Counted from the first letter of the stretch, positions 58 to 38,911 are shown. The stretch: 64,000 nucleotides of DNA from an uncultured Acidobacteriota bacterium (GCA_963837055.1 CAWILU010000006.1:513455-577454); one strand, 5' to 3'. Notes: generated from the letters alone by a model not told the origin. Made by a program: numbers and translations.

Positions 58-92
58 GGAGAAGATGGTAACGGGGGGCCGTTTTAGCTCCT

Positions 93-21073: not shown

Positions 21074-21793
21074 TCATCGATCCTGACGAAGCAAGGTGCG
21101 CAGCGCCGAGTTCTTGTAGATGTTGGAGAACTGATTCCACTGCCTCTTCTTGTCGATGAGCTGCACGCCGGTCTCCACTACCGGGGTCACGACCCCGAAA
21201 TGCGCCGCCACCTGGGTGAGGGTGTGGTTCCAGATCTTGTCTTCCATCCGGGAGGTGTAGAGCTTGAAGCTGACCTCGTACAGCGGGTCGTTGGCCCGGA
21301 CCAAGAGATGGATCCGGGCCACGGTCACCTCGTCTTCGCCCTCGTGAGCGCTGAAAGTGATGATGGCGGCCCAGGGATGCCCTTCCGGGGTCATGTATGA
21401 CCAGGAGCGATCGTCGGCATAGATCACCCGAACGCCGGTGGTGAGCTTGGCCGGGCCCTTGCCCCCGCCGATCACAGCCACCTCGCCCGGGGCGATGCCG
21501 CCGGCTGGGGCGTAGAACTTGTTGTCGGACGGCCAGAACTCCCCGAAGTTCGCCTTCCAGGTGGCAATCACTTGCTCCGGGGTCGGGCCGGGGACACGGA
21601 CCTCGTAGGTCTTCTGCCAGAGCTGGCCAAAGCCCTGCAACGGTCCGGTTGGCTTGCGGCCCTCGACGTTGCCCTTGCGGGCACCCTCTGCGACCTCTCC
21701 GACGTGGAAGGCGTCGACCGGCTGTGCCCAACTGTCTGAATTCCTCGGCTCTGTCACCTCGGTCCTTTCTCTGATGGCTCCAATAGACCACAT
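21074..21793 (-). CDS. hypothetical protein (conserved, no motif recognised)
   Basis: 239-aa ORF with coding-like composition and codon usage matching neighbouring genes. No diagnostic motif. Confidence 0.45.
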   Translation of the reverse strand: MWSIGAIRERTEVTEPRNSDSWAQPVDAFHVGEVAEGARKGNVEGRKPTGPLQGFGQLWQKTYEVRVPGPTPEQVIATWKANFGEFWPSDNKFYAPAGGIAPGEVAVIGGGKGPAKLTTGVRVIYADDRSWSYMTPEGHPWAAIITFSAHEGEDEVTVARIHLLVRANDPLYEVSFKLYTSRMEDKIWNHTLTQVAAHFGVVTPVVETGVQLIDKKRQWNQFSNIYKNSALRTLLRQDR

Positions 21794-21884
21794 GTCCGTT
21801 CCGCCATCGTTACGGGCCGCCAGTATCGCCTAAGAAGGCGCGGTGACTTTCTCGTAACGGCACTCGGGCACAATCAGGGGGTAC

Positions 21885-23279
21885 ATGGGTGAATACGACG
21901 CAGTTGTGGTCGGCTCGGGCCCCAACGGGCTCTCCGCCGCCGCAGAGCTGTCGCGGCGCGGGCGCAGGGTGCTGGTGATCGAACAGGCCGAGGAGATCGG
22001 TGGTGGGACCCGGACCGAGGAGCTCACGCTCCCCGGTTTCGCCCACGACGTCTGCTCGGCGATCCATCCCCTCGGAGTCGCCTCGCCCTTCTTTCGTGAC
22101 CTCCAGCTGGAGATGGAATGGGTCCATCCCACCATCCCACTGGCCCATCCCCTGGGCAGCGGCCGGGCCGGTGTCATCTCCAGAGACGTCGACGCCACCG
22201 CGGACCGATTCGGCGCCGACGCGCGTCACTACAAGCGGATCCTCGGACCACTGGTCCAGGCTGCCGACGCGGTGATGGAGGATTTCCTGGGGCCGATGAC
22301 CCTGGTGCCAGATAATCCAGGGAGCTTCGTCAAGCTCGCCACCAGGGGGGCGCTCCCGGCTTCGATCATTGCCTCCGGCTTTTCCTCGGACGAGGCCCGG
22401 GGCGTATTTGCCGGTCTCGCCGCTCACGCCATCGCCCCATTCAGCTCACCTTTGACCGGTGGGGTGGCACTCCTCTTCGGTGTGACGGCTCATGCCTATG
22501 GATGGCCGATGGCAAAGGGCGGCTCACAGCGCATCGCCGAGGCCCTGGCCAAGGTCATCGTGGATGGTGGCGGCAGCATCGAGACCGGGCGGATGATCGG
22601 TTCTCTCGACGAGCTTCCCCGCGCTCCGGCAGTGATCCTCGATGTGATGCCCCGTGCCGCGGTCCGCATTGGCGGAGCCCGCGTCAGCCCTCGGGACCGG
22701 CGCCGGCTGACGGCTTGGAAGGGTGGGCCGGCCGTGTTCAAAGTCGACTGGGCTCTCGATGGGCCGATCCCGTGGGCCGATGAATGGAGCCCGCAGGCGG
22801 GGACGGTCCACGTCGGTGGGACCTGGGAGGAGGTTGCCGCGGCCGAGGATCAGGTTCACGCCGGGCAACACCCGGAGCGACCCTTCGTTCTCGTCGCCCA
22901 GCAGTCCCGCTTCGACCCTTCCCGCGCTCCCGAGGGGAAACACACCGCCTGGGGGTATTGCCATGTGCCGTCCGGCTCTGACGTGGACATGACTTCAGCG
23001 ATCGAGGCCCAGTTGGAGCGATTCGCGCCGGGGTTCAAGGATCTCATCCTCGAAAGGCACACCATGAATGCCGGCCAGTTCGAGGCCCACAACCCCAACT
23101 ACATCAGGGGTGACATCGCAGGTGGCGGTTTCGGGGTGAAGAAGGTGTTCCAGCTGGGCTCGACCGCCCCGTATCGGCTAGGCGACGGTCTCTATCTCTG
23201 CTCCTCCGCGACCCCACCAGGGGCGGGTGTGCACGGCATGTGCGGCTACTACGCCGCCCGAGCTGCCCTCAAGGGCTGA
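21885..23279 (+). CDS. phytoene desaturase family / NAD(P)/FAD-dependent oxidoreductase (CrtI-like)
   Basis: YDAVVVGSGPNGLSAAAELSRRGRRVLVIEQ dinucleotide-binding motif; 464 aa amine-oxidase-like fold. Confidence 0.8.
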   Translation: MGEYDAVVVGSGPNGLSAAAELSRRGRRVLVIEQAEEIGGGTRTEELTLPGFAHDVCSAIHPLGVASPFFRDLQLEMEWVHPTIPLAHPLGSGRAGVISRDVDATADRFGADARHYKRILGPLVQAADAVMEDFLGPMTLVPDNPGSFVKLATRGALPASIIASGFSSDEARGVFAGLAAHAIAPFSSPLTGGVALLFGVTAHAYGWPMAKGGSQRIAEALAKVIVDGGGSIETGRMIGSLDELPRAPAVILDVMPRAAVRIGGARVSPRDRRRLTAWKGGPAVFKVDWALDGPIPWADEWSPQAGTVHVGGTWEEVAAAEDQVHAGQHPERPFVLVAQQSRFDPSRAPEGKHTAWGYCHVPSGSDVDMTSAIEAQLERFAPGFKDLILERHTMNAGQFEAHNPNYIRGDIAGGGFGVKKVFQLGSTAPYRLGDGLYLCSSATPPGAGVHGMCGYYAARAALKG

Positions 23280-24540
23280 CGGCGGCGGGAGGCGCGTCGG
23301 CCCCACGGACCCAAATGCCGATGCCTTCGGGTTGCATGGTCGAGGAGACCACGGCAACCCAGCCGGTCATCACCTCCTCGGGGTCGACCCGGTCCCGGAG
23401 TGACGTAGCAAAGCCATCCATCACCCGTTGGGCGTCGAAGCGTTCCCGGTTGAAACGGCGGTCCACCCAACCCTGGACCCGCTTTCGCAAGGGATTGAAC
23501 AGGGCGGCTACCACCAGCGTCGACCCGGCCACGGCCAGATCTGATGACTCCTCGGGCAGCAGGGAGGACATCAATGCAACGACACCGAGGAACGAGCCTG
23601 CCAACAATCCGACCACCAGGGCATAGGAGACCGTCCGGGACACGATCCGGTCGATCTCGTAGAGGCGGTAGCGGAGAACGGCCACACCGAAAGAGAGAGG
23701 GAACAGGACCATCATCACGTATGCCGGGCCCCAAGCATCGTCACCGGGATCGCCGGCACCGATACCGATCGAGATGAAGACGTAGAGAAACGTAAGCAGC
23801 ACAGCGGTGGTCAACAGCACGAAGGCAAACACCACCCAGGTGAGCTGGGCACGCTCCGCCCCGACCGCCCGACGTCTCTTGATCACCAGTGACACCGCGC
23901 CACCGAGCAGGATGGCGACGATGCCGAACAGTGCCGCGTAGCCCAGCCATTCGGGTAGGAAGCCGATTGGATTGACAGTCTGGGTCGAGGATTCCGCACC
24001 CCCCAACGTCGCGGTCAGGGCAGTGGCAGCGAGAAGAATCGGCAGGACCCAGACAGCGACACGTCCTGCCCTGGCCCATAGACCGGTGCCCGCCGGCAGA
24101 TGCCCGGAAGGGAAGGTCAGAGTCAGGGCCGCGAACAGGCAAAACACCAGAGCCCAACCCCAGCTGGATACCCAGGCGGCGAACAACGGGGACACATCCG
24201 GCAGACCGATTAGCCCGTCGGCCCACAACACCGCCAAACCGATCCAGAGCAGCAACCAGCCAGTCAGGTGACCGTTGCGACGTATGACAATCAGGCCGCC
24301 GATCGAGGCATAGATCAGAAAGCCGAAGGCGGCGAGGGTGGCGTCCGCAAACGGGCGATCGCTCAGTATCAGCTGGAGGAACGAGATCCCGAGCCCGGCC
24401 AGGACGAGGAGGCCAAGCAGGGCCCAGCGGGCCCACCGACTCAGTTGGGACTGCTCTGTGAACTCAATTGTCCCGGTCGGGCTCAATTCCGTTCGCGGAA
24501 TCGTCTCACACGGCCGCGAGCGCCGCGGACTCGTCGTCAA
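23269..24540 (-). CDS. polytopic membrane protein, paralog A of the 7-member family with a conserved C-terminal cytoplasmic module
   Basis: 423 aa; about 8 TM helices. The C-terminus RYRLYEIDRIVSRTVSY ... NPLRKRVQGWVDRRFNRERFDAQRVMDGF ... WVRG is shared with the array at 26811-33618. Confidence 0.7.
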   Translation of the reverse strand: MTTSPRRSRPCETIPRTELSPTGTIEFTEQSQLSRWARWALLGLLVLAGLGISFLQLILSDRPFADATLAAFGFLIYASIGGLIVIRRNGHLTGWLLLWIGLAVLWADGLIGLPDVSPLFAAWVSSWGWALVFCLFAALTLTFPSGHLPAGTGLWARAGRVAVWVLPILLAATALTATLGGAESSTQTVNPIGFLPEWLGYAALFGIVAILLGGAVSLVIKRRRAVGAERAQLTWVVFAFVLLTTAVLLTFLYVFISIGIGAGDPGDDAWGPAYVMMVLFPLSFGVAVLRYRLYEIDRIVSRTVSYALVVGLLAGSFLGVVALMSSLLPEESSDLAVAGSTLVVAALFNPLRKRVQGWVDRRFNRERFDAQRVMDGFATSLRDRVDPEEVMTGWVAVVSSTMQPEGIGIWVRGADAPPAAVSP

Positions 24541-24856
24541 AGATCTCGATGGCCTCGTCGAGACGGGTGAGCGAGAAGATCTGGCAGTAATGATCGGTCA
24601 GGCCATAGGCCATGAGTCGGTGCCCACTGCGCTGGGCGCGGATCAGCGTGGTGACCAGGAGGCCTATGCCCCCACTGTTCATGTACTCGAGACCCTCGAA
24701 ATTGAGCACGACGGCGGCCACCCCGCCCTGCGAGGCCTCGTCGTGTGCGGCTGAGATCTCCTTCTCGGAGAACCCGGTGATCTCACCGGTGATGTCGATG
24801 ACCCTGACCGTCGGAGTCGCCTCCCTCACGGTCATCGTCACATTGGCTGTTGGCAT
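24506..24856 (-). CDS. STAS domain anti-sigma-factor antagonist (SpoIIAA/RsbV-like)
   Basis: STAS fold with the conserved phospho-acceptor context (NFEGLEYMNSGGIGLL). The start is probably MPTANV at 24856. Confidence 0.7.
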   Translation of the reverse strand: MPTANVTMTVREATPTVRVIDITGEITGFSEKEISAAHDEASQGGVAAVVLNFEGLEYMNSGGIGLLVTTLIRAQRSGHRLMAYGLTDHYCQIFSLTRLDEAIEIFDDESAALAAV

Positions 24857-24869
24857 ATCCTCCCTCTCC

Positions 24870-25211
24870 TCACCCGGCCGCGACTGCGGCCGTCTCATCG
24901 TCATAGATAGTCATGAAGTCGGACAGACGGGTGATGCTGAACACCTCCCGATAGTGCTCCGTCAAACCGAATGCCCCGACCTCACGGTCCTCCGCTCTGG
25001 CCATCGCCAGCACCCCGACGATGACGGCGATACCCGTGGAGTTGATGTAGTCCACGCCCCGGAAGTCCATCAGGACTCGCCCTGGCTGCTCGGCGGCTTC
25101 CTCATAGGCCGCCTCCAGAGCCTGCTTGGCTGCCCGGTTCACGGTCCCGCTCATGACCACCAGGGACCCGTCTTCGGTCCTGGCCACCGTTGCCTCGAAC
25201 ACGCTCTCCAT
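24870..25211 (-). CDS. STAS domain anti-sigma-factor antagonist (SpoIIAA/RsbV-like)
   Basis: 113 aa; DFRGVDYINSTGIAVIVG has the conserved Ser/Thr. Its start overlaps the PP2C-HATPase stop by one base (TGATG). Confidence 0.8.
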   Translation of the reverse strand: MESVFEATVARTEDGSLVVMSGTVNRAAKQALEAAYEEAAEQPGRVLMDFRGVDYINSTGIAVIVGVLAMARAEDREVGAFGLTEHYREVFSITRLSDFMTIYDDETAAVAAG

Positions 25212-26800
25212 CAGGAAACTCCTTCCCGGTTCATCACGAGCTCAATCGTGTGGGTTGCACCGTCACTGGTCGATCGCACCTCGTCGACCATCTGTTCGAT
25301 CAGGAACAGGCCCCATCCACGAGGGGTCTGCTCCCCGGCGAGCTTGGCCTCCAGGTCCGGCAACGCCGCCTCCGGGATCACCCGATGACCGCCCTGATCG
25401 CTGACCAGAACACTCACGCTGTCCTCATTGGCGCATACCTGGACGTCGACGTCGAGATCGGCGCGATTGTCGTTGCCATGCTCGATGGCGTTCATCACGG
25501 TCTCGCCCACCGCTGTCTTGAGCCGCTCGAGTCGCGCCGGCTCGAGACCCATGTCCTCGATCGCAGCTGTCACCTTGGCGATGGCGACGCGCTCGTTGCC
25601 TTCCTCGCTGGGGACCGCGAACTTGGCCAACACCTGGCGCCGCTCTTCGAATGTCTCCGCCGAGGCCTGGGCGGAAGCGGTCCGCTTCACTACGACGAGG
25701 GTTATGTCGTCTTCCTGCTCCGCATCCTCGCCGGTGAATGCCTCCAGATCGGACACGACGGCATTGAGGACGTCGTCGTTGATGGGTCTCCGGGCAACGC
25801 GGGCCATGAGCCGGGCGAAGCCGTACATCTCGCCTTCGGCGCTGTGGGCCTCGGTGATCCCGTCGCTGGTGAGGACCATGACCTCGCCCGGCGACATCTC
25901 GTACTTGGCCTCGTCATAGGGCATTCCCGGCATGAGGCCGAGAGGCATGCCGGTGGCCCGCAATTCGATGACTTCGTCTCCGCTGCGCACATAGGGCAAA
26001 TTGTGCCCGGCATTGGCGAAGACGATGTGTCCTGCCTCGGTGTCGATGATCGCGTAGAGACAGGTCACGAACATCGCCGGCGGGATCTCCGGAACCAGGC
26101 CATCATTGACGTCGGCCAGCACGGCGGATGGGGAGTTGTGACGCTGGGCGGCCGCTCGCAACATCGAACGGCAGGTGGCCATCACGAGTGCGGCCGGGAC
26201 TCCTTTGTCGGTCACGTCGCCGATCACGACGCCGAGCCGCCCGTCCTCGAGGGCGATGAAGTCGTAGAAGTCTCCGCCGACCGCCCGGGCGGGTCGGTAG
26301 AAGGCGTCGACATGCCAGCCCGGGATGGCAGGCAATTCCTTGGGAAGCAGGGTCTGCTGGATGAGGGCCGCGACCTGTAGCTCCTGGTGAATCCGCTCTC
26401 TCTCCTTGGCCTCTGCCTGCTGCTCACGCACCAGTTGGGCGACCTTCATCGCCGGAGCCACCTGAGAGGCGAGACTGCCGAGCAGCCGTCGATCATCGGT
26501 CGAATAGGGCTGATCGGAGAGACGTGGGCCGAGATAGAGGGCACCGAGCAGCTCACCCTGGCCGATCAAGGGCACGATGAGCTCGACTCCGACGGCCCGA
26601 AGACTGTCGAGAGTCTCCGATTCGAGCTCTAGGTCCCCAAGCACCAGTGGGCCCCCGGACGACAACAGCAGGGTCTCCAACGGGTCCCCGACCGGAATCG
26701 GGATGGCTTCGATGAGCCGGGTCTTCGACTCCGGGATCTGTGTCTCGTCCGCAATCGGTGTTTCTTCGTCGGCTCTGCGCCGTCTCATCAGCTGAACCAT
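25211..26800 (-). CDS. partner-switching regulator: degenerate GAF - PP2C (SpoIIE-type) phosphatase - HATPase_c (RsbW-like kinase) fusion protein
   Basis: PP2C motifs GGDFYDF and GDVTDKGVPAALVMA ... DGITEA; C-terminal HATPase_c ETVMNAIEHGN ... DQGGH. The start at 26800 lies 10 nt downstream of the paralog B stop. The alternative start at 26905 would overlap paralog B. Confidence 0.85.
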   Translation of the reverse strand: MVQLMRRRRADEETPIADETQIPESKTRLIEAIPIPVGDPLETLLLSSGGPLVLGDLELESETLDSLRAVGVELIVPLIGQGELLGALYLGPRLSDQPYSTDDRRLLGSLASQVAPAMKVAQLVREQQAEAKERERIHQELQVAALIQQTLLPKELPAIPGWHVDAFYRPARAVGGDFYDFIALEDGRLGVVIGDVTDKGVPAALVMATCRSMLRAAAQRHNSPSAVLADVNDGLVPEIPPAMFVTCLYAIIDTEAGHIVFANAGHNLPYVRSGDEVIELRATGMPLGLMPGMPYDEAKYEMSPGEVMVLTSDGITEAHSAEGEMYGFARLMARVARRPINDDVLNAVVSDLEAFTGEDAEQEDDITLVVVKRTASAQASAETFEERRQVLAKFAVPSEEGNERVAIAKVTAAIEDMGLEPARLERLKTAVGETVMNAIEHGNDNRADLDVDVQVCANEDSVSVLVSDQGGHRVIPEAALPDLEAKLAGEQTPRGWGLFLIEQMVDEVRSTSDGATHTIELVMNREGVS

Positions 26801-26810
26801 GGCCCCATTT

Positions 26811-27959
26811 CTATCTCTCGACCGTCCCGAAATCGTTACGAACCCATACCGAAATCGATGTCGGGTGCATCGTCTCGGACACCACTCCCACCCAGCCCTC
26901 GACAACAGTGTCCGGGTCGAGGTCCTGCCGCAGGGAACCCGAGAATTGGTCCATCACCTGCTCTGCGTCGTAGCGCGACCGGTTGAAACGTCTCTCCACC
27001 CCTGCCTGGACCCTTCTCCGCAACGGTGTGAAGAGGGCAGCGGCGGCCAGGGTAGAGCCCGCCACGGCCAACGGGGACTCGGCGTCGAGGACTGCGGTGA
27101 GGGCGGTCAATCCCAGTGCATAGACCGCACCGAGCAGGGCGATCACGATGACATACGAGACCGTGCGCGACAGGATCCGGTCGATCTCGTAGAGCCGATA
27201 ACGCAACACGGCAAAAAGGATCGAGATCGGTATCGCGGCCACCCCGAGTGAGACAATCCACCAGATGGCTTGGTTGGAATCGTCTGACGTCGCTCCCACC
27301 AGATAGGCGATGGCAAGAAGACTGGTGGCGGCGAGCAGCCACTTGATCTGCTGACGCTCGACCGACTCCGCCCTCCGATAGCGGGCCACCACGGACAACG
27401 TCGCCGGGATGACGGAGACGAATCCGAAGATGAAGCCGGCGTCGACGAGTGGGTACCACCGCGTCGGGCTGAGCAGCTCTGAGTCCACGAGTATCTCCAG
27501 AGGCTGCCCCCAGAGAAGACCCGCCCCGATCACGGTCGACACGGCACCGATCAATGGTCCGAGACCGATGACACGCCACCAGCCAACCGGCTTTCCGGTC
27601 GGGAAACACAGAATCACGAGCGAGACCCCAATGAGAAATAGGGCACCGGTCCAAGCCCCGAGCCAACCAAAGAAATATGCCAAGGGCAGGGAGTTCCCCG
27701 ATTCGAGGGAGAGTGTCGCGTATCCCCTCCCGAACAGATAGAGCACCCAGGCCGAACCGGCAGCCAGAGAGAGGGCGCCGATCGCGTTCGACGGCACCTT
27801 GATGGTCAGGATCGCCCCGACGACCACAGAGCACACCGAGGCGAAGAGGATCCCGACCATCGAGTCGATATCCATCGGGAAAGTCAGCCAGGCGATTGCC
27901 GCGCCGATCATGAGGAGGACCCAAAGCGCGATGGCGGCCCGAAGAGGTTTGGAAGTCAT
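26811..27959 (-). CDS. polytopic membrane protein, paralog B (conserved C-terminal module family)
   Basis: The real start MTSKPLRAAIALW is at 27959. The 708-aa track ORF is an artefactual extension through paralog C in another frame. C-terminus RYRLYEIDRILSRTVSY ... RRFNRSRYDAEQVMDQF ... VWVR. Confidence 0.75.
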   Translation of the reverse strand: MTSKPLRAAIALWVLLMIGAAIAWLTFPMDIDSMVGILFASVCSVVVGAILTIKVPSNAIGALSLAAGSAWVLYLFGRGYATLSLESGNSLPLAYFFGWLGAWTGALFLIGVSLVILCFPTGKPVGWWRVIGLGPLIGAVSTVIGAGLLWGQPLEILVDSELLSPTRWYPLVDAGFIFGFVSVIPATLSVVARYRRAESVERQQIKWLLAATSLLAIAYLVGATSDDSNQAIWWIVSLGVAAIPISILFAVLRYRLYEIDRILSRTVSYVIVIALLGAVYALGLTALTAVLDAESPLAVAGSTLAAAALFTPLRRRVQAGVERRFNRSRYDAEQVMDQFSGSLRQDLDPDTVVEGWVGVVSETMHPTSISVWVRNDFGTVER

Positions 27960-28996
27960 CCGTCTCGCACCCATACGCCGGCGGCAGCCGGCTCCATGGT
28001 GGCAAACACGACCCCGATCCAGCCGTCGATGACCCCATCCGGGTCGACCTGGTTCTGCAGGGAACCGGAGAAGATGTCCATCACCTTCTGGGCGTCGTAG
28101 CGGGCCCGGTTGAACCTGCGGTCGACCCAGCTCTGAACCCGTTTGCGGACCGGGTTGAACAGCGCGGCCACCGCCAGAGTCGAGGCGGCGACGACGAGGT
28201 CGCTGGACGTGTCGAGCAGCGTGCTGGTGGCGGTGACCAAACCGAAGAACACTGCGGCCAACAGTCCGACGACCAACAAGTAACTGACCGTCCTGGACAC
28301 GATTCGATCGATCTCGTAGAGGCGGTAGCGGGTGATTGCAATCGCGACCGAGATGGGGACCCCGATGGTGATGATCATGCTTATCGCCGTGATGAGGGTC
28401 TGGGCCTCGGCCGAGGCGCCGAGAACGACACTCACGAGGACCAGCGAGACAACACCCACGAGCAGGACCAGGATCGGTCCTGCGACCTGACGGCGGATCA
28501 ATGGGGATCCCTTGATCAGCCGGTAGAGAAGCGGCAGTAAGCCGAGGATGACGACGACCGCGATGAAGCTGCCCGCCACCATGCTCAGGATGGCGATGGC
28601 GGCGGCATGCACCCAAGGCCACCACGGTCGCCGGTAGCGCCCGTCGGGAAAAAGTGTCAGTGACGAAAAGAGTGTCAACAGACCGGCATCGAAGACGATC
28701 TGTCCCGGCGTGACCAGGGCCGGGGTATTGAGAGTCTCCGCCATCTCCTGGAGGGCAACCCCTGCGCCGACGAGAAGCGGTCCGACGATGAACAGCCATC
28801 CAACTGCATTCGCCGGGATCCGCCGGGCCAGCACAACCCCAACGATCGGAAAGGCGAAGAAGGAGAGAGCCCACAATTTGTCCAGTAGGCCGATCACCTC
28901 CTCGGATCCGGGATCGAACCAGAGCGCGGCAGCCCACACCATCACGAGAAGTCCGAAGAGCGCCCAGGGCAGAATGCCGACCAATCGACGTCTCAC
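27956..28996 (-). CDS. polytopic membrane protein, paralog C (conserved C-terminal module family)
   Basis: 346 aa. The start ATG at 28994-28996 overlaps the paralog D stop (ATGA). The conserved C-terminal module is present. Confidence 0.8.
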   Translation of the reverse strand: MRRRLVGILPWALFGLLVMVWAAALWFDPGSEEVIGLLDKLWALSFFAFPIVGVVLARRIPANAVGWLFIVGPLLVGAGVALQEMAETLNTPALVTPGQIVFDAGLLTLFSSLTLFPDGRYRRPWWPWVHAAAIAILSMVAGSFIAVVVILGLLPLLYRLIKGSPLIRRQVAGPILVLLVGVVSLVLVSVVLGASAEAQTLITAISMIITIGVPISVAIAITRYRLYEIDRIVSRTVSYLLVVGLLAAVFFGLVTATSTLLDTSSDLVVAASTLAVAALFNPVRKRVQSWVDRRFNRARYDAQKVMDIFSGSLQNQVDPDGVIDGWIGVVFATMEPAAAGVWVRDG

Positions 28997-30096
28997 GCCG
29001 GCCCCCTCACCCAGACCGCGGCCGTGGCCGGCTGCATCTTCTCGGTCACCACACCGATCCAGCCTTCGACCACCTCCTCGCTGTCGACCCGGTCACGCAA
29101 CGATCCGGCAAAGCGGTCCATGACCCGCTGGTGGTCGTAGCGCGACCGGTTGAATCTATGGTCGACCGATGCCTGGACCCGCCTCCGCACCGGGTTGAAC
29201 AGGGCAGCCGCCGCCAGGGTCGATCCGGCTACGGCGAGCGGCGAGTTGTCGGGGAGGAACAAGGTCATCGCCGTCAGACCGATGAAATAGGCAGCGCCGA
29301 GCAGGACAACCACGATCACGTAGGCCACGGTTCGGGAGAGAATTCGATCGATCTCGTAGAGCCGATATCGGGTGACCGCGATCCCGATCGTTACCGGGAT
29401 GAGGATGAATCCGGCGGGCAGGAACACATTCGCCACGAGCGAGTACTGAAACCCACCGAACTCGGCGATGACGCCGATCAGGAAGACGATGAAGGCGAGG
29501 ACCAGCCACTTCATCTGCAGCCTCTCCACGCCCCTGGACCGAATCCAACGGACGACTAGTGAGATGATCGCGGCCACGATCCCGACGAGGATCAGGACCA
29601 ACCCGAGGATGTTGGCGCAAGAGCCGATCGAAACACATGCATCGACGTCAGCGGAGCCCGCCCCCTCCAGAGCCAACATTGCCCATCCGCCGATGATCCC
29701 GATCACGCCAACCGTCGCCACGACCGAGACCCAGCGCCAGCGCGGGGTCAGGGCCCGGCCGGTGGGGAACCAAAGGGGCACGAAGACGCCGAGACCAGGA
29801 AGCACGAGGGCGAAGAGGGCGATGCCACCGGCGATTTCGAGGAGGCTGCCAGGCTCGGACCCATCGGCGGCGTTCATGACGCCATCGCCCAAGGCGACCA
29901 GGAGCATGACCCATGACAGCCGGTTCTCGGGCACCTTCAATACCAGCAGTGCGCCCGTGGCGAGAAGGGAGAGAGTGCCGAGAGCGAACACCACGCCCTC
30001 GCCGGTCAAGCCCCCGCGAATCGCACCGGCCACCATGCCGCCGAGCACCATGACGGTGACCAAGGCGACGGTCAGGATTCGCCAGCCTCTGCTCAT
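28993..30096 (-). CDS. polytopic membrane protein, paralog D (conserved C-terminal module family)
   Basis: 367 aa; ATGA overlap with paralog E. Mid-protein FPTGR-x-RWRW loop motif and the conserved C-terminal module. Confidence 0.8.
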   Translation of the reverse strand: MSRGWRILTVALVTVMVLGGMVAGAIRGGLTGEGVVFALGTLSLLATGALLVLKVPENRLSWVMLLVALGDGVMNAADGSEPGSLLEIAGGIALFALVLPGLGVFVPLWFPTGRALTPRWRWVSVVATVGVIGIIGGWAMLALEGAGSADVDACVSIGSCANILGLVLILVGIVAAIISLVVRWIRSRGVERLQMKWLVLAFIVFLIGVIAEFGGFQYSLVANVFLPAGFILIPVTIGIAVTRYRLYEIDRILSRTVAYVIVVVLLGAAYFIGLTAMTLFLPDNSPLAVAGSTLAAAALFNPVRRRVQASVDHRFNRSRYDHQRVMDRFAGSLRDRVDSEEVVEGWIGVVTEKMQPATAAVWVRGPA

Positions 30097-31298
30097 TCAG
30101 CGCCATCCCTGACCCAGACACCCGCTGATGCCGGATGCATCGTCTTGGAAACCACTTCGATCCAGCCCGACACCACCTCCGGCCCATCCACTTGGTTGCG
30201 CAACGACCCGGAGAACTCGTCCATCACCAATTCGGCGTCATAGCGAGATCGATTGAAACGCCGATCGACCCGGCCGAGCACCAAGCGTCTGATCGGGTTG
30301 AACAGGGCGGCGGCGGCCAATGTGGAGGCGGCCACTGCAAGCTGCGACTGCTCGGGGAGGAGGGTGGTCAGCCAGGTGAGCGCACCCAGATAGCCGGCCC
30401 CCAACACGACGACCACCAAGACGTAGCCCACGGTGCGGGAGATCACTCGATTGATCTCGTAGAGACCGTGGCGGGTGATGGCGATGCCAATCGCGGCTGC
30501 AGTCCCATTCCCCCACAGGGCGAATGCGACCACCACGGGATCGAAGCCCTGGATCCCGACAACGAGCTCTTCCAGGACGCCTGTGGCAAGGAACATCACC
30601 GGGAAGGCTGCGACAGCTAGGACGAACCACCGGAACTGCAGCCGCTCAACACCCGAGGAGCGCCGGAACCGAATGACCAAATCAACCACTGCGACTAGGG
30701 CAATCACGGCCAGTGCGGTGCCCAGCCATTCTGTGGCCGGGTCGAGCAGATCTCGGGCCCCAGGTATGCCGAGCGGGTTGTCCGGAGGGGTGTCACCCAC
30801 CACGGGGCCCGGGCGAAGTGCAAAGACCAGAGCGTCCACCAAGGTGACGAGGAGGAAGGCTCGGAGGATCCACCGGCCAAACCGACTCGGATCACCTGAT
30901 GGATACAAGACGACGAGGGTCATCACCAAAGCCACCACGGGGAGGAATCCCCAGGTCGCCACCCAGGCGGCCGGACCGCCGAACGGCCAGGCACCGGACT
31001 CGGTGACCAGGGCGAACCTCGCATATTCAGATGCGAGAAGATCGATCCCGACGCCGAATGTGATGCCGCACATGAGCCAGCCGATGCGATTGGCGGGGCG
31101 ACTCGAAACCACCAGGGCGCCGACCAGACCGAATCCGACCCACGTCGAGAGCCAGATCGCTCCTTCGAGTGCGGACTCTTGAGCCTGGGTGGTCGAGATC
31201 GGCGGGTTCATCTCGGTCAAGACCGCCGCCAAGACGATCATCGCCACACCCGTCAGCCACATCACCCACGCAATCCATCGGCTAGTGCGAGACCTCAT
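30093..31298 (-). CDS. polytopic membrane protein, paralog E (conserved C-terminal module family)
   Basis: The real start MRSRTSRWIAW is at 31298 and overlaps the paralog F stop (ATGA). The track ORF is extended 5'. This is the most divergent copy (RHGLYEINRV). Confidence 0.75.
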   Translation of the reverse strand: MRSRTSRWIAWVMWLTGVAMIVLAAVLTEMNPPISTTQAQESALEGAIWLSTWVGFGLVGALVVSSRPANRIGWLMCGITFGVGIDLLASEYARFALVTESGAWPFGGPAAWVATWGFLPVVALVMTLVVLYPSGDPSRFGRWILRAFLLVTLVDALVFALRPGPVVGDTPPDNPLGIPGARDLLDPATEWLGTALAVIALVAVVDLVIRFRRSSGVERLQFRWFVLAVAAFPVMFLATGVLEELVVGIQGFDPVVVAFALWGNGTAAAIGIAITRHGLYEINRVISRTVGYVLVVVVLGAGYLGALTWLTTLLPEQSQLAVAASTLAAAALFNPIRRLVLGRVDRRFNRSRYDAELVMDEFSGSLRNQVDGPEVVSGWIEVVSKTMHPASAGVWVRDGAE

Positions 31299-32431
31299 GA
31301 CCCGTCTCTCACCCAAACCCCCGCCAACGCGGGCTCCATCGTCTCGGAGACGACTCCGACCCATCCATCCACCAGATCGCCTTCGTCGACGCGGTCCTGT
31401 AGAGACCCGGCGAACCGATCCATGACACGTTCGGCGTCGTATTTCGAACGGTTGAAACGACGGTCCACCCAACCCTGGAGCCGCTTGCGCAGCGGGTTGA
31501 AGAGTGCGGCGACAGCGAGAGTGGATCCGGCGACCGCCAGCTGGCTCTCGGCTGGCGACACCCAGGTGAGGACAGTCACGGCTCCGACGAACACGAGCCC
31601 GAGGACCCCCACCACGAGGATGTACCCGACGGTCCGGGAGATGAGCCGGTCGATTTCGAAGAGGCGGTATCTGACCACCGCAACACCAATGCAGATCGGG
31701 ATGGCGGATCCTCCTACCAGCCAGAACAGCTCGAATACCGAATCTTCAGGCAAGACCTGGCCGGCGGCGGAGATGACCACGAACAGACATGCACCCAGGA
31801 GCAGCCACCGGTACTGCTGGCGTTCGATGCCCGTACTCCTTCGGCTTCGGCGGATGAGGCTGACAATCGCCGCTGCAGAGAGGCCGACCACGAAGAAGAA
31901 CCCCGTATCGCCGATGATGAAATTCAATACCGAGCTCAGCTCTACACCGAGTGGGTTTTTCAATCCGGTGTCCGTGAGTGGGAGCGGGCTCAGCACGAAA
32001 CCGATCACCGCCAAAGATCCGATCGCGATCACCGCCCGCCCCACGAATCTCTCCAGACGACCGGGGTATTCACCGGTAGGGAAGGTCGTGAGGAGCCAGA
32101 CAACGATCAGCCAGGGGACAACGCCCAACGTCGTATAAACGAGCTCGATCCACGCGGCCGCTTCGAGCGGCACGCGGAGCACGATGGACTGGAGCCCGAA
32201 CGAAACTCCCCAGACCAACCCGATGGCGAGACAGGCCATCCCGATCTTGTTCCCCGGCCGTCGCATCAGGATGATCCAACCCACGACCGGCCACGCCGCC
32301 CAGGACGCCGGCCACAGTTGATCACTGGTGTCGGCCAGGGGCCCGAAGAACATTCCCAGAAAAATGCCGCCCACGGCCAGCAAGAGAAGAGCGGTGAGGA
32401 GGATCTTCCTCAAGGTCCCTCCCTCAGCCAC
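31295..32431 (-). CDS. polytopic membrane protein, paralog F (conserved C-terminal module family)
   Basis: 378 aa; conserved C-terminal module (RYRLFEIDRLISRTVGY ... RRFNRSKYDAERVMDRF). The 5' end overlaps the paralog G 3' end by 22 nt. Confidence 0.75.
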   Translation of the reverse strand: MAEGGTLRKILLTALLLLAVGGIFLGMFFGPLADTSDQLWPASWAAWPVVGWIILMRRPGNKIGMACLAIGLVWGVSFGLQSIVLRVPLEAAAWIELVYTTLGVVPWLIVVWLLTTFPTGEYPGRLERFVGRAVIAIGSLAVIGFVLSPLPLTDTGLKNPLGVELSSVLNFIIGDTGFFFVVGLSAAAIVSLIRRSRRSTGIERQQYRWLLLGACLFVVISAAGQVLPEDSVFELFWLVGGSAIPICIGVAVVRYRLFEIDRLISRTVGYILVVGVLGLVFVGAVTVLTWVSPAESQLAVAGSTLAVAALFNPLRKRLQGWVDRRFNRSKYDAERVMDRFAGSLQDRVDEGDLVDGWVGVVSETMEPALAGVWVRDGS

Positions 32432-33618
32432 ACCCCAGCCGCTGCCGGATGCATGGTCTCGCTCACGACCGAGACCCAGCCATCGACCACAACACCTGGG
32501 TCGACCTCGTCACGCAGGGCGCCGGTGAAACCGATCATCACCCGTTCGGCGTCGTACCGGGTCCGATTGAAACGGTGATCGACGAAGGACTGGACACGTT
32601 TTCGAACCGGGTTGAACAAGGCGGCGGCGGCCAAAGTCGACGCGGCTACGGCAAGCGAGGACTCGGTGTCGAGCACGGACGTCAAGCCGGCCAGACCAAG
32701 GGCGTAGACCGTCCCGAGCAAGGCGATGACGATCACATAGGAGACGGTGCGGGAGATGATCCGATCGATCTCATAGAGCCGATAGCGGAGGATGGCGAGG
32801 GTGGCGGCGATGGGGATACCCAGGATCGAGAGATCGATCCAGATCTCCACAACCAGCGGCGGCTCAACGATGCCAAACAGCTCGAGGATCATCTCCGAGG
32901 TGAGGGCGAGCACGAACGAGAAACAGGCGAGAAGGAACCATTTCAACTGGAGCCGCTCGATCGACTCCGCCCTTCGGAAACGCAAGAACAGCGAGACCAC
33001 CGCTGCTCCCATGAAGAAGGGGTAAAGGGCGAAGAGGGGGCCGCCCAGCCAGCCGTACTCAGGGTTGGGCATGCCAGGGATCCCGATCGGATTGTCCGCC
33101 CACGCGGCGCAACCGAGCGGACCGCCCTCATCGATACAGATCTGGTCGGTGAAGATGTAGGTGATGAAGGTAAGGGCGACCAGAGCGAAGCCGAGCCACT
33201 GCAGCCAGAGCCAGCGTCGACTGGGGACATGCCCGGTGGGGAACCAGAGAACCAGGGTTCCGATGCCGACGATCCAACCCAGCCAGAAAGCGCCGCCGAT
33301 GGCCTGAAAGACGAGCAGCCCCCGCTCGGCCAGCCCCCCGGCCAACCCGGCGGAGAGGATCGAAAGGCCGATGGCCGAGAAGACCCATCCGACCCGGTTT
33401 CCGTCTGCCTTCCACAGAATCAGCGGCCCGAGCGCCAGAAAGGCGACCATCGTCGCGATGTTGCCGAACGTCTCGGCATCCACTGCCGGAGGCCACCATC
33501 CCAGAATCCCACCCAGTATCAACGTCGTTAGCAGCAGCAAGCTGATCACTGCCACAACGAGCGCGGCTGTTTTGCTGGCGTTGGGGGTTATCGCCTCTCC
33601 ATCCCTCATCGAGACCAC
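32410..33618 (-). CDS. polytopic membrane protein, paralog G (first gene of the array; conserved C-terminal module family)
   Basis: 402 aa. GTG start at 33618, or ATG at 33609. Conserved C-terminal module and FPTGHVPSRRWLW loop. Confidence 0.75.
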   Translation of the reverse strand: MVSMRDGEAITPNASKTAALVVAVISLLLLTTLILGGILGWWPPAVDAETFGNIATMVAFLALGPLILWKADGNRVGWVFSAIGLSILSAGLAGGLAERGLLVFQAIGGAFWLGWIVGIGTLVLWFPTGHVPSRRWLWLQWLGFALVALTFITYIFTDQICIDEGGPLGCAAWADNPIGIPGMPNPEYGWLGGPLFALYPFFMGAAVVSLFLRFRRAESIERLQLKWFLLACFSFVLALTSEMILELFGIVEPPLVVEIWIDLSILGIPIAATLAILRYRLYEIDRIISRTVSYVIVIALLGTVYALGLAGLTSVLDTESSLAVAASTLAAAALFNPVRKRVQSFVDHRFNRTRYDAERVMIGFTGALRDEVDPGVVVDGWVSVVSETMHPAAAGVWLREGP

Positions 33619-36559: not shown

Positions 36560-36832
36560 ATGACAGTTTCCACCATCACCTCCCTCGACGAGTGGGCCGC
36601 TCACCCTCTGGGCAAGGCGGCTCGGATCGCAGTGGCAGTCCTCGGTCTGGCCTCGGCCATTCTCGTGCTCTTGGTGGCCACCATGAACAGCCAGGCCGCC
36701 TGGCTCCTCGTGCTTCTCGGTGTGGCACTGGCCGCCACGTCGGTACGGGCCGCGAGCAACCCGACCGTGATCCGTCTCACCACCCTCGCTGCGGTGATGA
36801 TCGCCATCCCCTACGTGGCGCAAACCCTTTAA
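36560..36832 (+). CDS. small hypothetical membrane protein (2 TM helices)
   Basis: 90-aa hydrophobic ORF followed by a strong hairpin. Confidence 0.35.
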   Translation: MTVSTITSLDEWAAHPLGKAARIAVAVLGLASAILVLLVATMNSQAAWLLVLLGVALAATSVRAASNPTVIRLTTLAAVMIAIPYVAQTL

Positions 36833-36908: not shown

Positions 36909-37142
36909 GGGCCCACACACCCTTGATGGGGGTGGGGGTAATCCCCTATTGGATTGTCCACAGGAATCTGGATGATTGGGGAGCGGGGAGACTTCAGGGC
37001 ATCACTCCGTCCCTGGAAGCGACAATGGGGACCATCGGGGGACCGCGGTAGCGGTCCCCCTTTGACTGCGAGAAAAGCCATCCAAACCTCCACACCAACC
37101 GTCAAGAGCCGCAAAATCCCCGGCCCGCTAGCTTCCGAGTCG

Positions 37143-38258
37143 ATGAGCAGCTTCACCAAACGGGGCAGCGCAGATCTGGAATCCACCCTGCGCCGGATGG
37201 TGGTCGTCTTCCGCTTCCTCGGCTTGATCTGGATGCTGATCCTGGTCGCGGTCACGATCCGTTCGGACCCACCACCGGAGATCTGGATCGTCTGGGCGTC
37301 GGTGGGCCTCGCCATCTTCTGGACCCTGCTCACCTGGCTCGTGGCCAAGACTCAGCCCAAGTTCATGGCAGGATGGGTCTGGTTCGCCCTCGACTCCATG
37401 GCCATGCTCGCCATCGGAGCCGCATCGGTTGCATCGGGGGCGACCGAGCTGTTCCACGGCGGTCTCCCTCTGTCTCTGGTGTTCACCGGTGCCTTGCTGG
37501 GTGGTCTCCCCGGGTCCCTGATCGCAGCGGTCCTCCTCGGCGTCGAGCAGTTCTTGGTCCATGTGATCGCCGACCTGGGGGCGGTCCGTGCCGCCGGGAG
37601 TGTGATCTTCTTTGTGGTCGGAGCAATCGTCGGCTGGACCTTCGACAAGCTGCGCGACTACGACCTCGCACGTCAAGAGGCACAGGACGAGCTCGCCGCC
37701 GAGCAGGCGGCCGTGGTGCTACACGAGGAGCGCGCAATCCTGGCCGATCGTCTCCACGACTCGGTTCTGCAGACCCTCCATGCCATCCGCATGGGCGCCG
37801 ATGATCCCGGCCAGTCGAGGTATCTGGCCCGGCGCCAGGAGAGGGAGCTGAGACGGAACATCGAGGAGTGGCGGTCGGAATACCGGGACAGCTTTCGGGC
37901 CAATCTGCTCGCGGTCAGGGACGAGGTGGAGGACACCCATCGAGTCGAGATCGAAGCCGTCATCCGGGACGACGCCCAGCTCAACCCCAATCTCGCCGCC
38001 GCCATCGAGGCCGCCCGCGAGGCGATGGCCAACGCCGCCAAGCACTCCGGCTCTCGCAACATCTCCCTCTACTCCGAGTTCGCCAACGGTGAGGCCCACA
38101 TTCATGTTCGGGACGGTGGCACCGGATTCGCCAGCGACGCCCTCCGCAACCGGGTGCATGAGCGACTCGCCAAACGGGTGGAGAACGTGGGAGGCCTGGT
38201 GGAGATAGACACCGCCCCAGAGTCCGGGACAGAGATCAAGATCACAGTGGGGAAATGA
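37143..38258 (+). CDS. sensor histidine kinase (HisKA_3 / NarL-partner type) with an N-terminal 4-TM membrane domain
   Basis: H-box EERAILADRLHDSVLQTL, then HATPase_c (AKHSG ... VRDGGTGF ... GTEIKI). Starts at the ATG at 37143 (MSSFTKRG); the track ORF is extended 5'. The stop overlaps the RR start (ATGA). Confidence 0.8.
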   Translation: MSSFTKRGSADLESTLRRMVVVFRFLGLIWMLILVAVTIRSDPPPEIWIVWASVGLAIFWTLLTWLVAKTQPKFMAGWVWFALDSMAMLAIGAASVASGATELFHGGLPLSLVFTGALLGGLPGSLIAAVLLGVEQFLVHVIADLGAVRAAGSVIFFVVGAIVGWTFDKLRDYDLARQEAQDELAAEQAAVVLHEERAILADRLHDSVLQTLHAIRMGADDPGQSRYLARRQERELRRNIEEWRSEYRDSFRANLLAVRDEVEDTHRVEIEAVIRDDAQLNPNLAAAIEAAREAMANAAKHSGSRNISLYSEFANGEAHIHVRDGGTGFASDALRNRVHERLAKRVENVGGLVEIDTAPESGTEIKITVGK

Positions 38259-38911
38259 CCGACAGGCTCCGTCTCATCATCGTTGACGACCACGACGTGG
38301 TCAGGGCCGGAATGAGAGCAATCCTCGACCCGTCCTTCGACATCGTCGGCGAAGCGGACAACGTGGACAGCGCGATCGAGCTCATCAAGGAGCGGCTCCC
38401 CGACCTCGTGGTGCTCGACGTCAAGTTGCCGGGTGGTGGTGGCGCCGCAGTCATACCCGCCGTGCGTCGTGACTTCCCGGACATCAGGTTCATGGCACTC
38501 ACCGTCTCCACCTCGAAGGAAGACGTCGCCCGGCTCCTCGACGCAGGAGTCGACGGGTACATCACCAAGACCACACTCGGCGCCGATCTTCCCGACCTGG
38601 TCAGACAGACGTATGTCGGTGCTCGACCGGTCTCCCCCGATGTGGCGGCTTACCTCCTGGACATCGACGAGGGCATCACCGGCGAAACACCGATCTCGCG
38701 TCTCACGCCGAGAGAGCGGGAGGTGGTGAATCTCATCGCCCGCGGCTACACCTACCGGGAGAGCGCCGAGCGTCTCGGCATCACGGTGAAGACGTTGGAA
38801 AACCACATGGCGCACATCTTCGACAAGCTCAGTGTCGCCAGCCGTCATGAGCTCACCGCCCTCGCCTACGAGGAGGGCTACGTCCGCCCCGACGACGAAC
38901 GGAACAAATAG
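38255..38911 (+). CDS. NarL/FixJ (LuxR-type) family response regulator
   Basis: REC domain (LIIVDDHDVVRAG ... D54 context LVVLDVKLPGG) plus a LuxR HTH (TPREREVVNLIARGYTYRESAERLGITVKTLENHMAHIFDKL). Confidence 0.9.
   Translation: MTDRLRLIIVDDHDVVRAGMRAILDPSFDIVGEADNVDSAIELIKERLPDLVVLDVKLPGGGGAAVIPAVRRDFPDIRFMALTVSTSKEDVARLLDAGVDGYITKTTLGADLPDLVRQTYVGARPVSPDVAAYLLDIDEGITGETPISRLTPREREVVNLIARGYTYRESAERLGITVKTLENHMAHIFDKLSVASRHELTALAYEEGYVRPDDERNK

Follow-up and report, generated by a model that had tools for sequence, protein, structure and literature searches.

Partner switches built on a PP2C phosphatase, a Ser kinase and a STAS protein are described in several bacteria. For HsbR/HsbA of Pseudomonas and CrsR/CrsA of Shewanella, one chain of input domain, PP2C and kinase/anti-sigma domain sets the phosphorylation of a separate STAS protein, and the targets of the switch, FlgM, HsbD and RpoS, are encoded elsewhere (PMC6482189). 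The stressosome of Bacillus shows paralogous RsbR sensors converging on one phosphatase (PMC11821858; in part general background). Rv1364c of Mycobacterium tuberculosis is a soluble protein with PAS, PP2C, kinase and STAS in one chain. Single-chain proteins of the type membrane sensor-GAF-SpoIIE(-HATPase_c_2) have, to our knowledge, not been characterised.

The locus analysed here lies in the window, that is, the whole stretch of 64,000 nucleotides, and its features are collected in Table 1. As with HsbR and CrsR, one chain carries the PP2C and, after it, a kinase/anti-sigma domain, and the STAS proteins are separate. The input of HsbR and CrsR is a receiver fed by a phosphorelay, whereas the PP2C-kinase gave no Response_reg match (Pfam) and has only a partial GAF, with the rest of the domain residing in seven membrane proteins (M1-M7); unlike those systems, the window also has a conserved pair of STAS paralogs, and its switch has no known target. 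The logic of PP2C, Ser kinase and STAS, and the presence of several paralogous sensors, are shared with RsbU/RsbV/RsbW of Bacillus, but RsbR/RsbS/RsbT, a cognate sigma factor gene and a stressosome scaffold are lacking in the window, the phosphatase and kinase are fused, and convergence would be by direct domain completion. The order of sensor, RsbU-like phosphatase and RsbW-like kinase is that of Rv1364c, which differs in having PAS instead of GAF and in carrying its STAS on the same polypeptide, and which has neither a split nor an array of sensors.

Table 1. Features of the locus, with domain limits (in residues) of the PP2C-kinase and of natural fusions
Feature	Position	Strand	Description
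M1	32410..33618	-	399-402 aa; first membrane sensor paralog of the array
M2	31295..32431	-	372-378 aa; membrane sensor paralog
M3	30093..~31256	-	~387 aa; membrane sensor paralog; start from gene call on a near-identical contig, longest ORF reaches 31472
M4	28993..30096	-	367 aa; membrane sensor paralog
M5	27956..28996	-	346 aa; membrane sensor paralog, same C-terminal module
M6	26811..27959	-	382 aa; last membrane sensor paralog before PP2C
M7	23269..24540	-	up to 423 aa; paralog downstream of STAS2; true start probably later than longest ORF
PP2C-kinase transducer	25211..26800	-	ATG start, 529 aa ORF
N-terminal tail	residues 1-~28		part of PP2C-kinase
GAF remainder	residues ~29-120		Pfam profile positions 45-133 only
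Long linker helix			between GAF remainder and SpoIIE/PP2C
SpoIIE/PP2C phosphatase domain	residues 187-374		PF07228, 9.8e-54, profile positions 2-191 of 192
HATPase_c_2 domain	residues 399-522		Ser kinase/anti-sigma-like; PF13581, 6.2e-20
STAS1	24870..25211	-	113 aa; Pfam STAS 4.1e-10, TIGR00377 2.1e-12
STAS2	24506..24856	-	116 aa; Pfam STAS 4.4e-12
22-nt box	26819..26840	-	CGTAACGATTT-CGGGACGGTCG; two 11-nt direct repeats, inside M6 3' end
Second box copy	21797..21814	-	CGTAACGATGGCGGAACG; upstream of DUF1990-like gene
SARP-type regulator	33734..36475	+	913 aa; divergently transcribed
DUF1990-like gene	21074..21757	-	227 aa from GTG 21757; weak PF09348, 0.0021
FAD/NAD-binding oxidoreductase	21885..23279	+	464 aa; Pfam NAD_binding_8, DAO, Amino_oxidase
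GAF in natural fusion P0303	residues 391-525
GAF in natural fusion P0246	residues 461-586
GAF in natural fusion P0249	residues 177-329
GAF in natural fusion P0258	residues 190-314

Partner-switch module and membrane paralogs

The translation of the PP2C-kinase gene contains the acidic metal-binding motifs of the phosphatase (GGDFYDF, GDVTDKG, SDGITEA and EDDITLV) and the N, G1 and G2 boxes of the kinase ('ETVMNAIEHGN', 'DQGGH' and 'RGWGLFLI'). The protein partially matched the NCBIfam models SiaA, SpoIIE, SpoIIAB and RsbW, the SpoIIAB and RsbW matches of the kinase domain falling below the equivalog cut-offs. At least 120 relatives share 70-93% identity with it and measure 499-558 aa, and dN/dS was 0.04-0.18. 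STAS1 is a single-domain SpoIIAA/RsbV-like protein with its Ser in 'YINSTG', and its start shares one base with the PP2C stop (TGATG). STAS2 is a second, distinct paralog with its Ser in 'YMNSGG' and is preceded by a GGAGG-type ribosome-binding site of its own. The phosphorylatable Ser motif is kept in 58 of the 70 related loci for STAS1 and in all 70 for STAS2. The parts of a partner switch, namely phosphatase, Ser kinase and two STAS proteins with Ser, are intact at the level of sequence; phosphorylation and dephosphorylation of the STAS proteins are inferred. No sigma or anti-sigma gene was found within ~10 kb either side of the module and no sigma factor gene among the co-conserved neighbours, while a target outside the 64-kb window is not excluded.

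All seven M ORFs are intact and on the same strand, M1-M6 upstream and M7 downstream of the module. An earlier note on this DNA had reported the PP2C, STAS and paralog genes, the motifs GGDFYDF, GDVTDKG and DGITEA, the one-base overlap, this arrangement of six and one paralogs in the same orientation and the absence of a sigma or anti-sigma gene from the locus, and all of these observations held, the last within the distance given above. Its partner-switching reading with the STAS proteins as substrates held at the sequence level, as supported by the PP2C motifs, kinase boxes and conserved Ser.

M6 is predicted to be N-in with 10 TM helices and a cytoplasmic tail ending '...VVSETMHPTSISVWVR', which is helix 1 and strand 1 of a GAF domain; its extra C-terminal 'NDFGTVER' comes from reading through the probable promoter box described below. 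The other M proteins likewise are predicted to be N-in with 10 TM helices, and in each the tail is cytoplasmic and ends in helix 1 and strand 1 of the GAF. Only M2 passed the gathering score of Pfam HisKA_7TM (PF16927; 31.6 bits vs 28.6), M6 matched it weakly, and nothing was recognised by Pfam or NCBIfam in five of the seven paralogs. Homologs of M4 numbered 1272 with E <= 0.001, most of those listed being standalone proteins of ~290-425 aa. Every M paralog is under purifying selection, as shown at the sequence level by dN/dS of 0.09-0.30 against the closest orthologs (0.14-0.16 for M5 and 0.16-0.30 for M4 with close orthologs). Identity among the paralogs is 26-37% in the membrane regions and 58-71% in the tails, the conserved tail being the last ~45 residues of each. 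Such far stronger conservation of the tails is expected of a common docking surface.

The gene order is conserved widely. M genes stand beside PP2C-kinase-STAS-STAS in 57 of 58 loci having >= 4 kb of upstream flank, from Acidimicrobiia, several Chloroflexota classes and other Actinomycetota. Related loci carry 0-8 upstream M copies, and a downstream M was found in ~20 of them. The last M lies <= 100 nt from the PP2C start in 33 of the 58 loci; a same-strand upstream M is missing in 5 of 58, and the nearest M is kilobases off in several.

The GAF domain divided between M tails and PP2C-kinase

Profiles of GAF, GAF_2 and GAF_3 (PF01590, PF13185 and PF13492) matched the PP2C protein alone with values of 5.6e-07 to 3.1e-05, covering profile positions ~45-133 only; a complete GAF fold is absent from this chain alone, and no GAF match was obtained for the M proteins alone (Pfam). 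After joining of the M6 tail to the PP2C N-terminus, the coverage grew to positions 2-127 for GAF_3 and 11-132 for GAF, with a small gain of 1.4-3 bits (30.4 vs 27.3 for GAF_3 and 35.1 vs 33.7 for GAF). As one joined sequence, M tail and PP2C N-terminus make up a complete GAF fold, both by profile coverage and in the AF2 model.

The chimera of M tail and PP2C was modelled by AF2 with pLDDT of 88.4 and pTM of 0.78. Helix 1 and strand 1, which come from M, have pLDDT of ~84-94 in it, and the GAF part contributed by PP2C has 93-98. M6 alone reached 86.6 overall, while its tail fell to 72-79 and then to 54; strand 1 was not formed, and the tail was still helical at 72-79. Since the alignment used for the chimera held natural fusions, the model shows the fold of the joined sequence and not a two-chain assembly. 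Strand 1 of a GAF domain sits inside the sheet (not verified on the chimera model), so that without it the core should be incomplete.

Natural fusions place the same parts in one polypeptide. Among the 150 top-ranking representatives of PP2C (50% clusters), about 85 carry the M C-terminal module N-terminal to PP2C in a single chain, in the order M module, complete GAF and PP2C, with or without the kinase. The unsplit relatives consist of a polytopic membrane sensor, juxtamembrane helices, full GAF, linker helix, PP2C and usually an RsbW-type Ser kinase, their N-terminal half being homologous to the M paralogs. In the fusions, GAF models span positions 1-133 and take in the stretch that corresponds to the M tail. 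Fusions of Chloroflexota and Actinomycetota (P0245, P0246, P0289, P0303 and L073) are homologous to the split form over the whole length, sharing the membrane module 'RYRL.DID...RRFYR.KYDA...SLWL' and the GAF, and are 41-58% identical to it in the PP2C and kinase parts. L073 is an in-frame M-PP2C fusion inside a syntenic locus, and the PP2C ORF has the M tail in frame in only 1 of 79 cases. The fusions have one sensor per enzyme, whereas the window has a cut inside the GAF and seven copies of the sensor half. This split form is found in the window, in nearly all sampled Acidimicrobiia and in many Chloroflexota. Split and fused sequences are colinear, with the break located in the variable loop that links strand 1 to strand 2; break point and tail end are kept to within a few residues across phyla.

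The PP2C GAF had been called degenerate in the earlier note; this claim failed, as the domain is truncated at its N-terminus, and helix 1 and strand 1, which it lacks, lie in the M tails, as shown at the sequence level. The same note had guessed that the membrane proteins are the missing input layer. Comparative evidence supports this strongly, through the fusion homology, the co-occurrence in 57 of 58 loci and the missing GAF piece in the M tails; physical interaction is still inferred. The break inside the GAF and the fused relatives go beyond that note, and so do the SARP-type regulator, DUF1990-like gene, FAD oxidoreductase and common promoter box of the conserved locus.

Proposed multi-input switch and rival explanations

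The reading favoured here, with moderate confidence and without binding data, is a partner switch with multiple inputs, where alternative 10-TM sensors would complete the GAF of the transducer in trans. A single-chain receptor gene would have been split in the strand 1-strand 2 loop, the membrane half amplified into seven diverged paralogs, and the enzyme half left to start with the rest of the GAF. Each M tail would contribute the helix 1 and strand 1 that the soluble PP2C-kinase lacks in its GAF, and this completion would tether the enzyme at the membrane and rebuild the path from sensor to linker. By analogy with other sensor-linked PP2C phosphatases, this path would set the phosphatase/kinase balance and thereby the phosphorylation state of the conserved Ser in STAS1 and STAS2, which would then change partners. 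With seven sensors that differ in their membrane parts but hardly in their tails competing for a single transducer or sharing it, several signals would, if this is true, be integrated into one output. What rests on inference alone is that the parts complement each other physically in trans, in which direction regulation runs and what the output is; the output is possibly encoded elsewhere or exerted via the DUF1990-like, FAD oxidoreductase or SARP genes. Several caveats apply to this reading. The Pfam gain on joining is small, adjacency of M and PP2C genes is not obligatory, as shown by the loci lacking it, the PP2C gene appears to be served by a separate promoter, and the conserved 28 N-terminal residues of PP2C, whose start 'MVQLMRRRR' is kept among orthologs, might have a separate role.

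The best surviving rival, though an unlikely one, is that the M proteins are cognate inputs without GAF completion, the truncated GAF folding or dimerising alone; in its variants the M proteins make helix-helix linker contacts, are competitive decoys, or also have other partners elsewhere. Synteny and fusions show a functional link but leave its physical form undefined, the GAF part from PP2C was modelled at high pLDDT (93-98), the tail of M6 alone is helical at 72-79, and M genes are far from PP2C in some loci, all of which favour this rival. Against it, loss of strand 1 should leave an incomplete GAF core, the positions of the break and of the end of the tail are constant to a few residues across phyla, and tail conservation far exceeds that of the membrane parts.

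It is very improbable that the module is an ordinary one of RsbU/RsbW/RsbV type whose GAF has degenerated and whose M neighbours are functionally unrelated. Such a reading could be argued from the blank Pfam/NCBIfam results for five paralogs and from the few M homologs named 'MFS family permease' by JGI, but it is contradicted by the synteny across Acidimicrobiia, Chloroflexota and other Actinomycetota, by the single-chain union of M module and PP2C in over half of the closest representatives (~85/150), and by the alignment of the M tail with the start of the GAF profile in fusions.

The weakest rival is that the array consists of decaying fragments, produced when the 5' half of a fused gene was duplicated in tandem, or of silent cassettes brought next to PP2C by recombination or joined to it by frameshifting or read-through. 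It is suggested by a 300-nt conserved 3' segment common to the tandem same-strand M copies and by the mere 10 nt from the M6 stop to the PP2C ATG, but is made highly unlikely by the seven intact ORFs with dN/dS of 0.09-0.30 and individually conserved orthologs, by DNA copies that are 62-69% identical without long identical tracts for recombination, and by a stop-to-start spacing that ranges over 7-12 nt in different genomes, with 10 or 11 the usual values, and so leaves no conserved reading-frame relation for recoding.

Probable promoter box, SARP-type regulator and co-conserved genes

The 22-nt box covers positions -40 to -19 of the PP2C ATG and is followed by AGAGA, the -10-like TAGAAA, 7 nt and the ATG, the TAG being the M6 stop. 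The pattern of repeats and hexamer is CGTAACG-N4-CGGGACG, 8-9 nt and (A)TAGAA(A). The box has 2 matches in the window against 0.07 expected, and 53 of 81 loci contain it, with few exceptions at these two sites. The PP2C box is conserved in nucleotides even where no M gene adjoins. The published rule for SARP regulators requires direct repeats with an 11-bp period, the 3' repeat lying ~8 bp from the -10 element (PMC10936776), and the box geometry meets it at the two window promoters and in the 53 loci. The PP2C box is likely a SARP-dependent promoter giving a leaderless PP2C-STAS-STAS transcript, as inferred from the sequence alone without binding data; the PP2C gene probably owns a promoter, which is again inferred from the box.

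The SARP-type regulator resembles the AfsR-type large SARPs in having BTAD (2.5e-18), a NOD-like ATPase (AAA_16, 8.1e-20) and TPR (Pfam). Its EmbR-like, putatively DNA-binding N-terminus rests on a weak alignment of residues 2-248 with EmbR 2fez (E 0.0028), and Trans_reg_C gave no match in this protein. There are 57 loci with a homolog at the far end of the array, and the regulator is a possible binder of the box, binding being inferred. The box is like the 'afs box' in its two 11-nt direct repeats placed 8-9 nt from a -10-like hexamer (PMC10936776); unlike AfsR and the 'afs box', it has a different sequence, is non-streptomycete and would serve a signalling module rather than antibiotic genes.

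Homologs of the DUF1990-like gene are present in 66 of the 81 loci with dN/dS of ~0.08-0.15, and at Chloroflexota and other distant loci the gene is directly 3' of STAS2 on the same strand. The FAD oxidoreductase has a homolog in 57 of the 81 loci, always adjoining the DUF1990-like gene.

Composition of the module and division of the GAF domain

The window has a G+C content of 65% and holds ten minus-strand genes in a row at 23269-33618. Six membrane paralogs upstream and one downstream of the partner-switch module had been claimed in the earlier note; this was confirmed, and all seven (M1-M7) were intact with lengths of 346-423 aa. The Pfam search of the PP2C protein, the proposed soluble transducer, revealed SpoIIE (9.8e-54), HATPase_c_2 (6.2e-20) and weak GAF matches restricted to profile positions ~45-133. 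The PP2C motifs quoted in the earlier note were all found in the protein, and so were the N, G1 and G2 boxes of the kinase. The claim that no sigma factor is present also held for the surroundings of the locus, none being found nearby. Both STAS proteins were kept as separate orthologs across the related loci with Ser retained in each. The module taken alone is ordinary; the unusual part is the split within one domain together with the amplified sensor half. The features are summarized in the table.

Features of the locus and of its surroundings in window coordinates
Feature	Position	Strand	Description
DUF1990-like gene	21074-21757	-	227 aa; accompanies the module in 66 loci
Second box copy	21797-21814	-	Upstream of the DUF1990-like gene
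FAD/NAD-binding oxidoreductase	21885-23279	+	Accompanies the module in 57 loci
STAS2	24506-24856	-	Downstream of STAS1; own GGAGG site; matches STAS models
STAS1	24870-25211	-	Start shares one base with the PP2C stop (TGATG); matches STAS models
PP2C gene	25211-26800	-	529 aa; ATG and N-terminus MVQLMRRRR conserved in orthologs
Direct-repeat box CGTAACGNTNNCGGRACG	26819-26840	-	Two 11-nt repeats; motif copy at 26823-26840; -40 to -19 of the PP2C ATG
Large SARP-type regulator	33734-36475	+	Divergent from the M array; EmbR-like N-terminus, BTAD, AAA_16, TPR; same position in 57 loci
90-aa ORF	36560-36832	+	Directly downstream of the SARP gene
HisKA_3-type histidine kinase	36954-38258	+	Adjoins the SARP gene
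LuxR-type response regulator	38255-38911	+	Adjoins the SARP gene

The topology of the M proteins was obtained from the model of M6, the last paralog upstream of the PP2C gene, and from the positive-inside rule. The N-terminus lies inside, ten TM helices follow, and the tail is cytoplasmic; in M6 the K/R-rich loops all face one side and the acidic ones the other. The paralogs are old: the overall protein identity is 39-47%, that of the membrane region 26-37% and that of the C-terminal module 58-71%, with a DNA identity of 62-69%. The best match of each of the seven in the related loci is 73-92% identical, and full-length M4 orthologs in other genomes show 73-84% identity. The dN/dS values against the closest orthologs were 0.09-0.30, therefore all seven are functional genes. 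No model for the family was found in NCBIfam.

The GAF domain had been described as degenerate in the earlier note. This description failed: the domain is split, the PP2C protein being without the first helix and strand, and the M tails carry that part. All seven paralogs end in the same C-terminal module of ~125 residues, which terminates in '...RFNRxRYDAxxVMDxFxGSLRxxVDxxxVVxGWxGVVSETMxPxxxxVWVR' with the stop 2-14 residues beyond. This ending resembles helix 1 and strand 1 of a GAF fold, which is exactly what the PP2C protein lacks; four lines of evidence (the joined Pfam match, natural fusions, colinearity and the prevalence of the split form) favour this view. When the M6 tail was joined to the PP2C N-terminus, the Pfam match to GAF_3 grew from profile positions 44-127 to 2-127 and that to GAF from 44-132 to 11-132, the gain in score being 1.4-3 bits.

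For relatives of the PP2C protein, 1.84 billion cluster representatives were searched exhaustively with HMMER and the 150 best were listed. The M C-terminal module was found upstream of PP2C in one chain in ~85 of these 150, as in P0245 (947 aa) and P0246 (1008 aa), and in P0289 and P0303 (~780 aa) without the kinase. The Pfam GAF models span position 1 to ~133 in these fusions and start at the 'DLDRL...' segment, the homologous counterpart of the M tail. When 14 split pairs (last M tail and PP2C N-terminus) were aligned by MAFFT with 19 natural fusions, the two forms proved colinear, with the break between the genes located in the variable loop that joins strand 1 to the 'I..DPL' segment. Among the species-representative loci the tail was in frame with the PP2C ORF in only 1 of 79, even with maximal upstream extension of the ORF; this locus, from a Ktedonobacterales MAG (L073), carries a fusion inside otherwise syntenic surroundings. 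The split form is the rule among species representatives, and the fused relatives alongside it provide a natural comparison or control.

The chimera of the M6 tail and the PP2C N-terminus was modelled using an alignment (A2) of the window chimera, natural fusion segments and unpaired homologs. The model showed a mean pLDDT of 88.4 and a pTM of 0.78. The M-derived helices (2-16, 18-36, 40-55) and strand (59-65) had pLDDT values of roughly 84-94 and the junction loop 57-70, while the PP2C-derived part, at 93-98, terminated in a 50-residue linker helix. In the model of M6 alone, calculated from a 99-sequence alignment, the membrane part was confident, and the tail fell to pLDDT 72-79 and then 54 with no strand 1. 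The M tail and the PP2C N-terminus together are thus predicted by the model to form a GAF fold; no control model of the PP2C part alone was made. The models give no proof of assembly in trans because the alignment held fusions.

Conservation of the locus

One genome per GTDB species was scanned, and the resulting 80 loci were analysed with HMMs built from the window proteins. The order of M array, PP2C/kinase, STAS1 and STAS2 recurs in Acidimicrobiia, in Chloroflexota (Limnocylindria, Chloroflexia, Anaerolineae and Ca. Amarolinea) and in some other Actinomycetota, the closest relatives being Acidimicrobiia MAGs. M genes were found in the flank of 57 of the 58 loci having at least 4 kb of upstream sequence. 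The array comprises 0 to 8 same-strand copies. Its last member is no more than 100 nt from the PP2C start in 33 loci, usually at a spacing of 10-11 nt. The break between sensor and enzyme inside a domain, combined with an array of the sensor half, is an unusual variant kept across these groups; hundreds of genomes of uncultured Acidimicrobiia and Chloroflexota, sampled from soil and water, have conserved the system. Outside Acidimicrobiia the DUF1990-like and FAD oxidoreductase genes directly follow STAS2 on the same strand, and the two are candidates either as regulated genes or as the output of the switch.

An identical PP2C protein was found on the 429 kb ENA metagenome contig ERZ25039456:contig_18888 (L001), which a k-mer check found near-identical to the window yet with small indels. 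Small indels or substitutions are indicated by coordinates shifted by 1-2 nt and by 200-mers without a match; as a result, the boundaries of some genes, M3/M4 for instance, are not quite the same. The SARP gene is one 913-aa ORF in the window versus gene calls of 780 and 126 aa on this contig. The last M, PP2C or SARP gene was split into 2-7 overlapping ORFs in several MAG loci (L005 8775-9965; L058 10001-11502; L064 9722-11602; L022 1448-4183), which are probably assembly indels and not true pseudogenes.

Several Acidimicrobiia carry a further, more divergent M-family gene (Mct HMM E about 1e-42 to 1e-47) on the downstream side of the module, at a distance of ~4 kb: L002 15738-17027, L005 16317-17498, L008 16313-17494, L009 16007-17188 and L012 16067-17452; the HMM scan gave no counterpart at the matching position in L001. 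The 90-aa ORF has homologs in 19 related loci and no Pfam match. The HisKA_3 kinase and LuxR-type regulator are probably not core to the system because they are kept in only 8-12 related loci.

Proposed signal route and alternative readings

The M paralogs are likely to be the cognate input half of the PP2C-kinase. In the proposed mechanism the soluble enzyme would have its GAF completed in trans by the M tails, which would also tether it to the membrane. The sensor state would reach PP2C by way of the GAF and then the linker helix, by analogy with other sensor-linked PP2C phosphatases; the balance of phosphatase and kinase would then determine the phosphorylation of STAS1 and STAS2, which may change partners. 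The evidence leans slightly, if at all, towards this trans-complementation, which is inferred, assembly in trans not being proven. A bolder reading, which could as well be wrong as right, is that the natural split GAF is a plug-in connector. In each genome, as many as eight alternative membrane receptors would donate the first GAF helix and strand to one soluble phosphatase-kinase, the wiring being made by fragment complementation and not by phosphotransfer or scaffold binding. If so, one partner switch could be wired to many sensors and the repertoire could grow by simple tandem duplication of the membrane half.

Among the alternatives, a link between the M proteins and the enzyme without completion of the GAF remains possible. 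That the M genes are decaying fragments, or reflect cassette switching or recoding, is very unlikely. Decay is contradicted by the dN/dS of the paralogs. Cassette switching or gene conversion was ruled out as the repeated DNA is just 62-69% identical, and recoding across the M6/PP2C junction was ruled out as the gap between the two genes is 7 to 12 nt long in different genomes (mostly 10 or 11), altering the frame relation. The reading of the M paralogs as unrelated neighbours is contradicted by their presence in 57 of 58 flanks and by the single-chain fusions with a full GAF.

Both partner switches and PP2C phosphatases linked to a GAF domain are well known. The route by which membrane signals arrive at either is poorly understood, except for the Bacillus stressosome. 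Among studied systems, HsbR/HsbA and CrsR/CrsA come closest in output logic: an input-PP2C-kinase chain controls a STAS protein that acts on targets encoded elsewhere (PMC6482189). A parallel to the idea of many sensors acting on one phosphatase is offered by the stressosome with its RsbR paralogs, although the M array would work by other physical means. A full-text literature search found no description of a split GAF with an amplified sensor half, the matches being psychiatry papers using 'GAF' as a rating scale. If the halves reassemble, the system would represent many-to-one signal integration through domain complementation and an example of sensor repertoire growth leaving the output untouched.

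The promoter box and the SARP regulator

The motif CGTAACGaTTtCGGgACG was found within 60 nt upstream of the PP2C ATG, its nucleotides being conserved with or without an overlapping M ORF. Two copies were observed in the window against 0.07 expected by chance, and the motif occurs in 53 of 81 loci, nearly always at the same two places (PP2C and DUF1990-like genes). The box is followed by 8-9 nt, (A)TAGAA(A) and a further 7 nt before the PP2C ATG; this geometry is that published for SARP-dependent promoters and the AfsR 'afs box' (PMC10936776). The box geometry, without binding data, suggests that the neighbouring SARP regulator may activate a leaderless PP2C-STAS-STAS transcript. The linked regulator and the shared box hint at a wider regulon of unknown function.

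The conservation of the box sequence explains the conserved 'RNDFGT' extension of the 'last-M' tails. A peptide role for this extension was rejected, the nucleotides being conserved upstream of PP2C even where no M ORF covers them. TAGAAA is a -10-like hexamer whose TAG doubles as the M6 stop codon. The box instead precedes M genes in a small number of distant loci, Chloroflexota among them (L065, L067).
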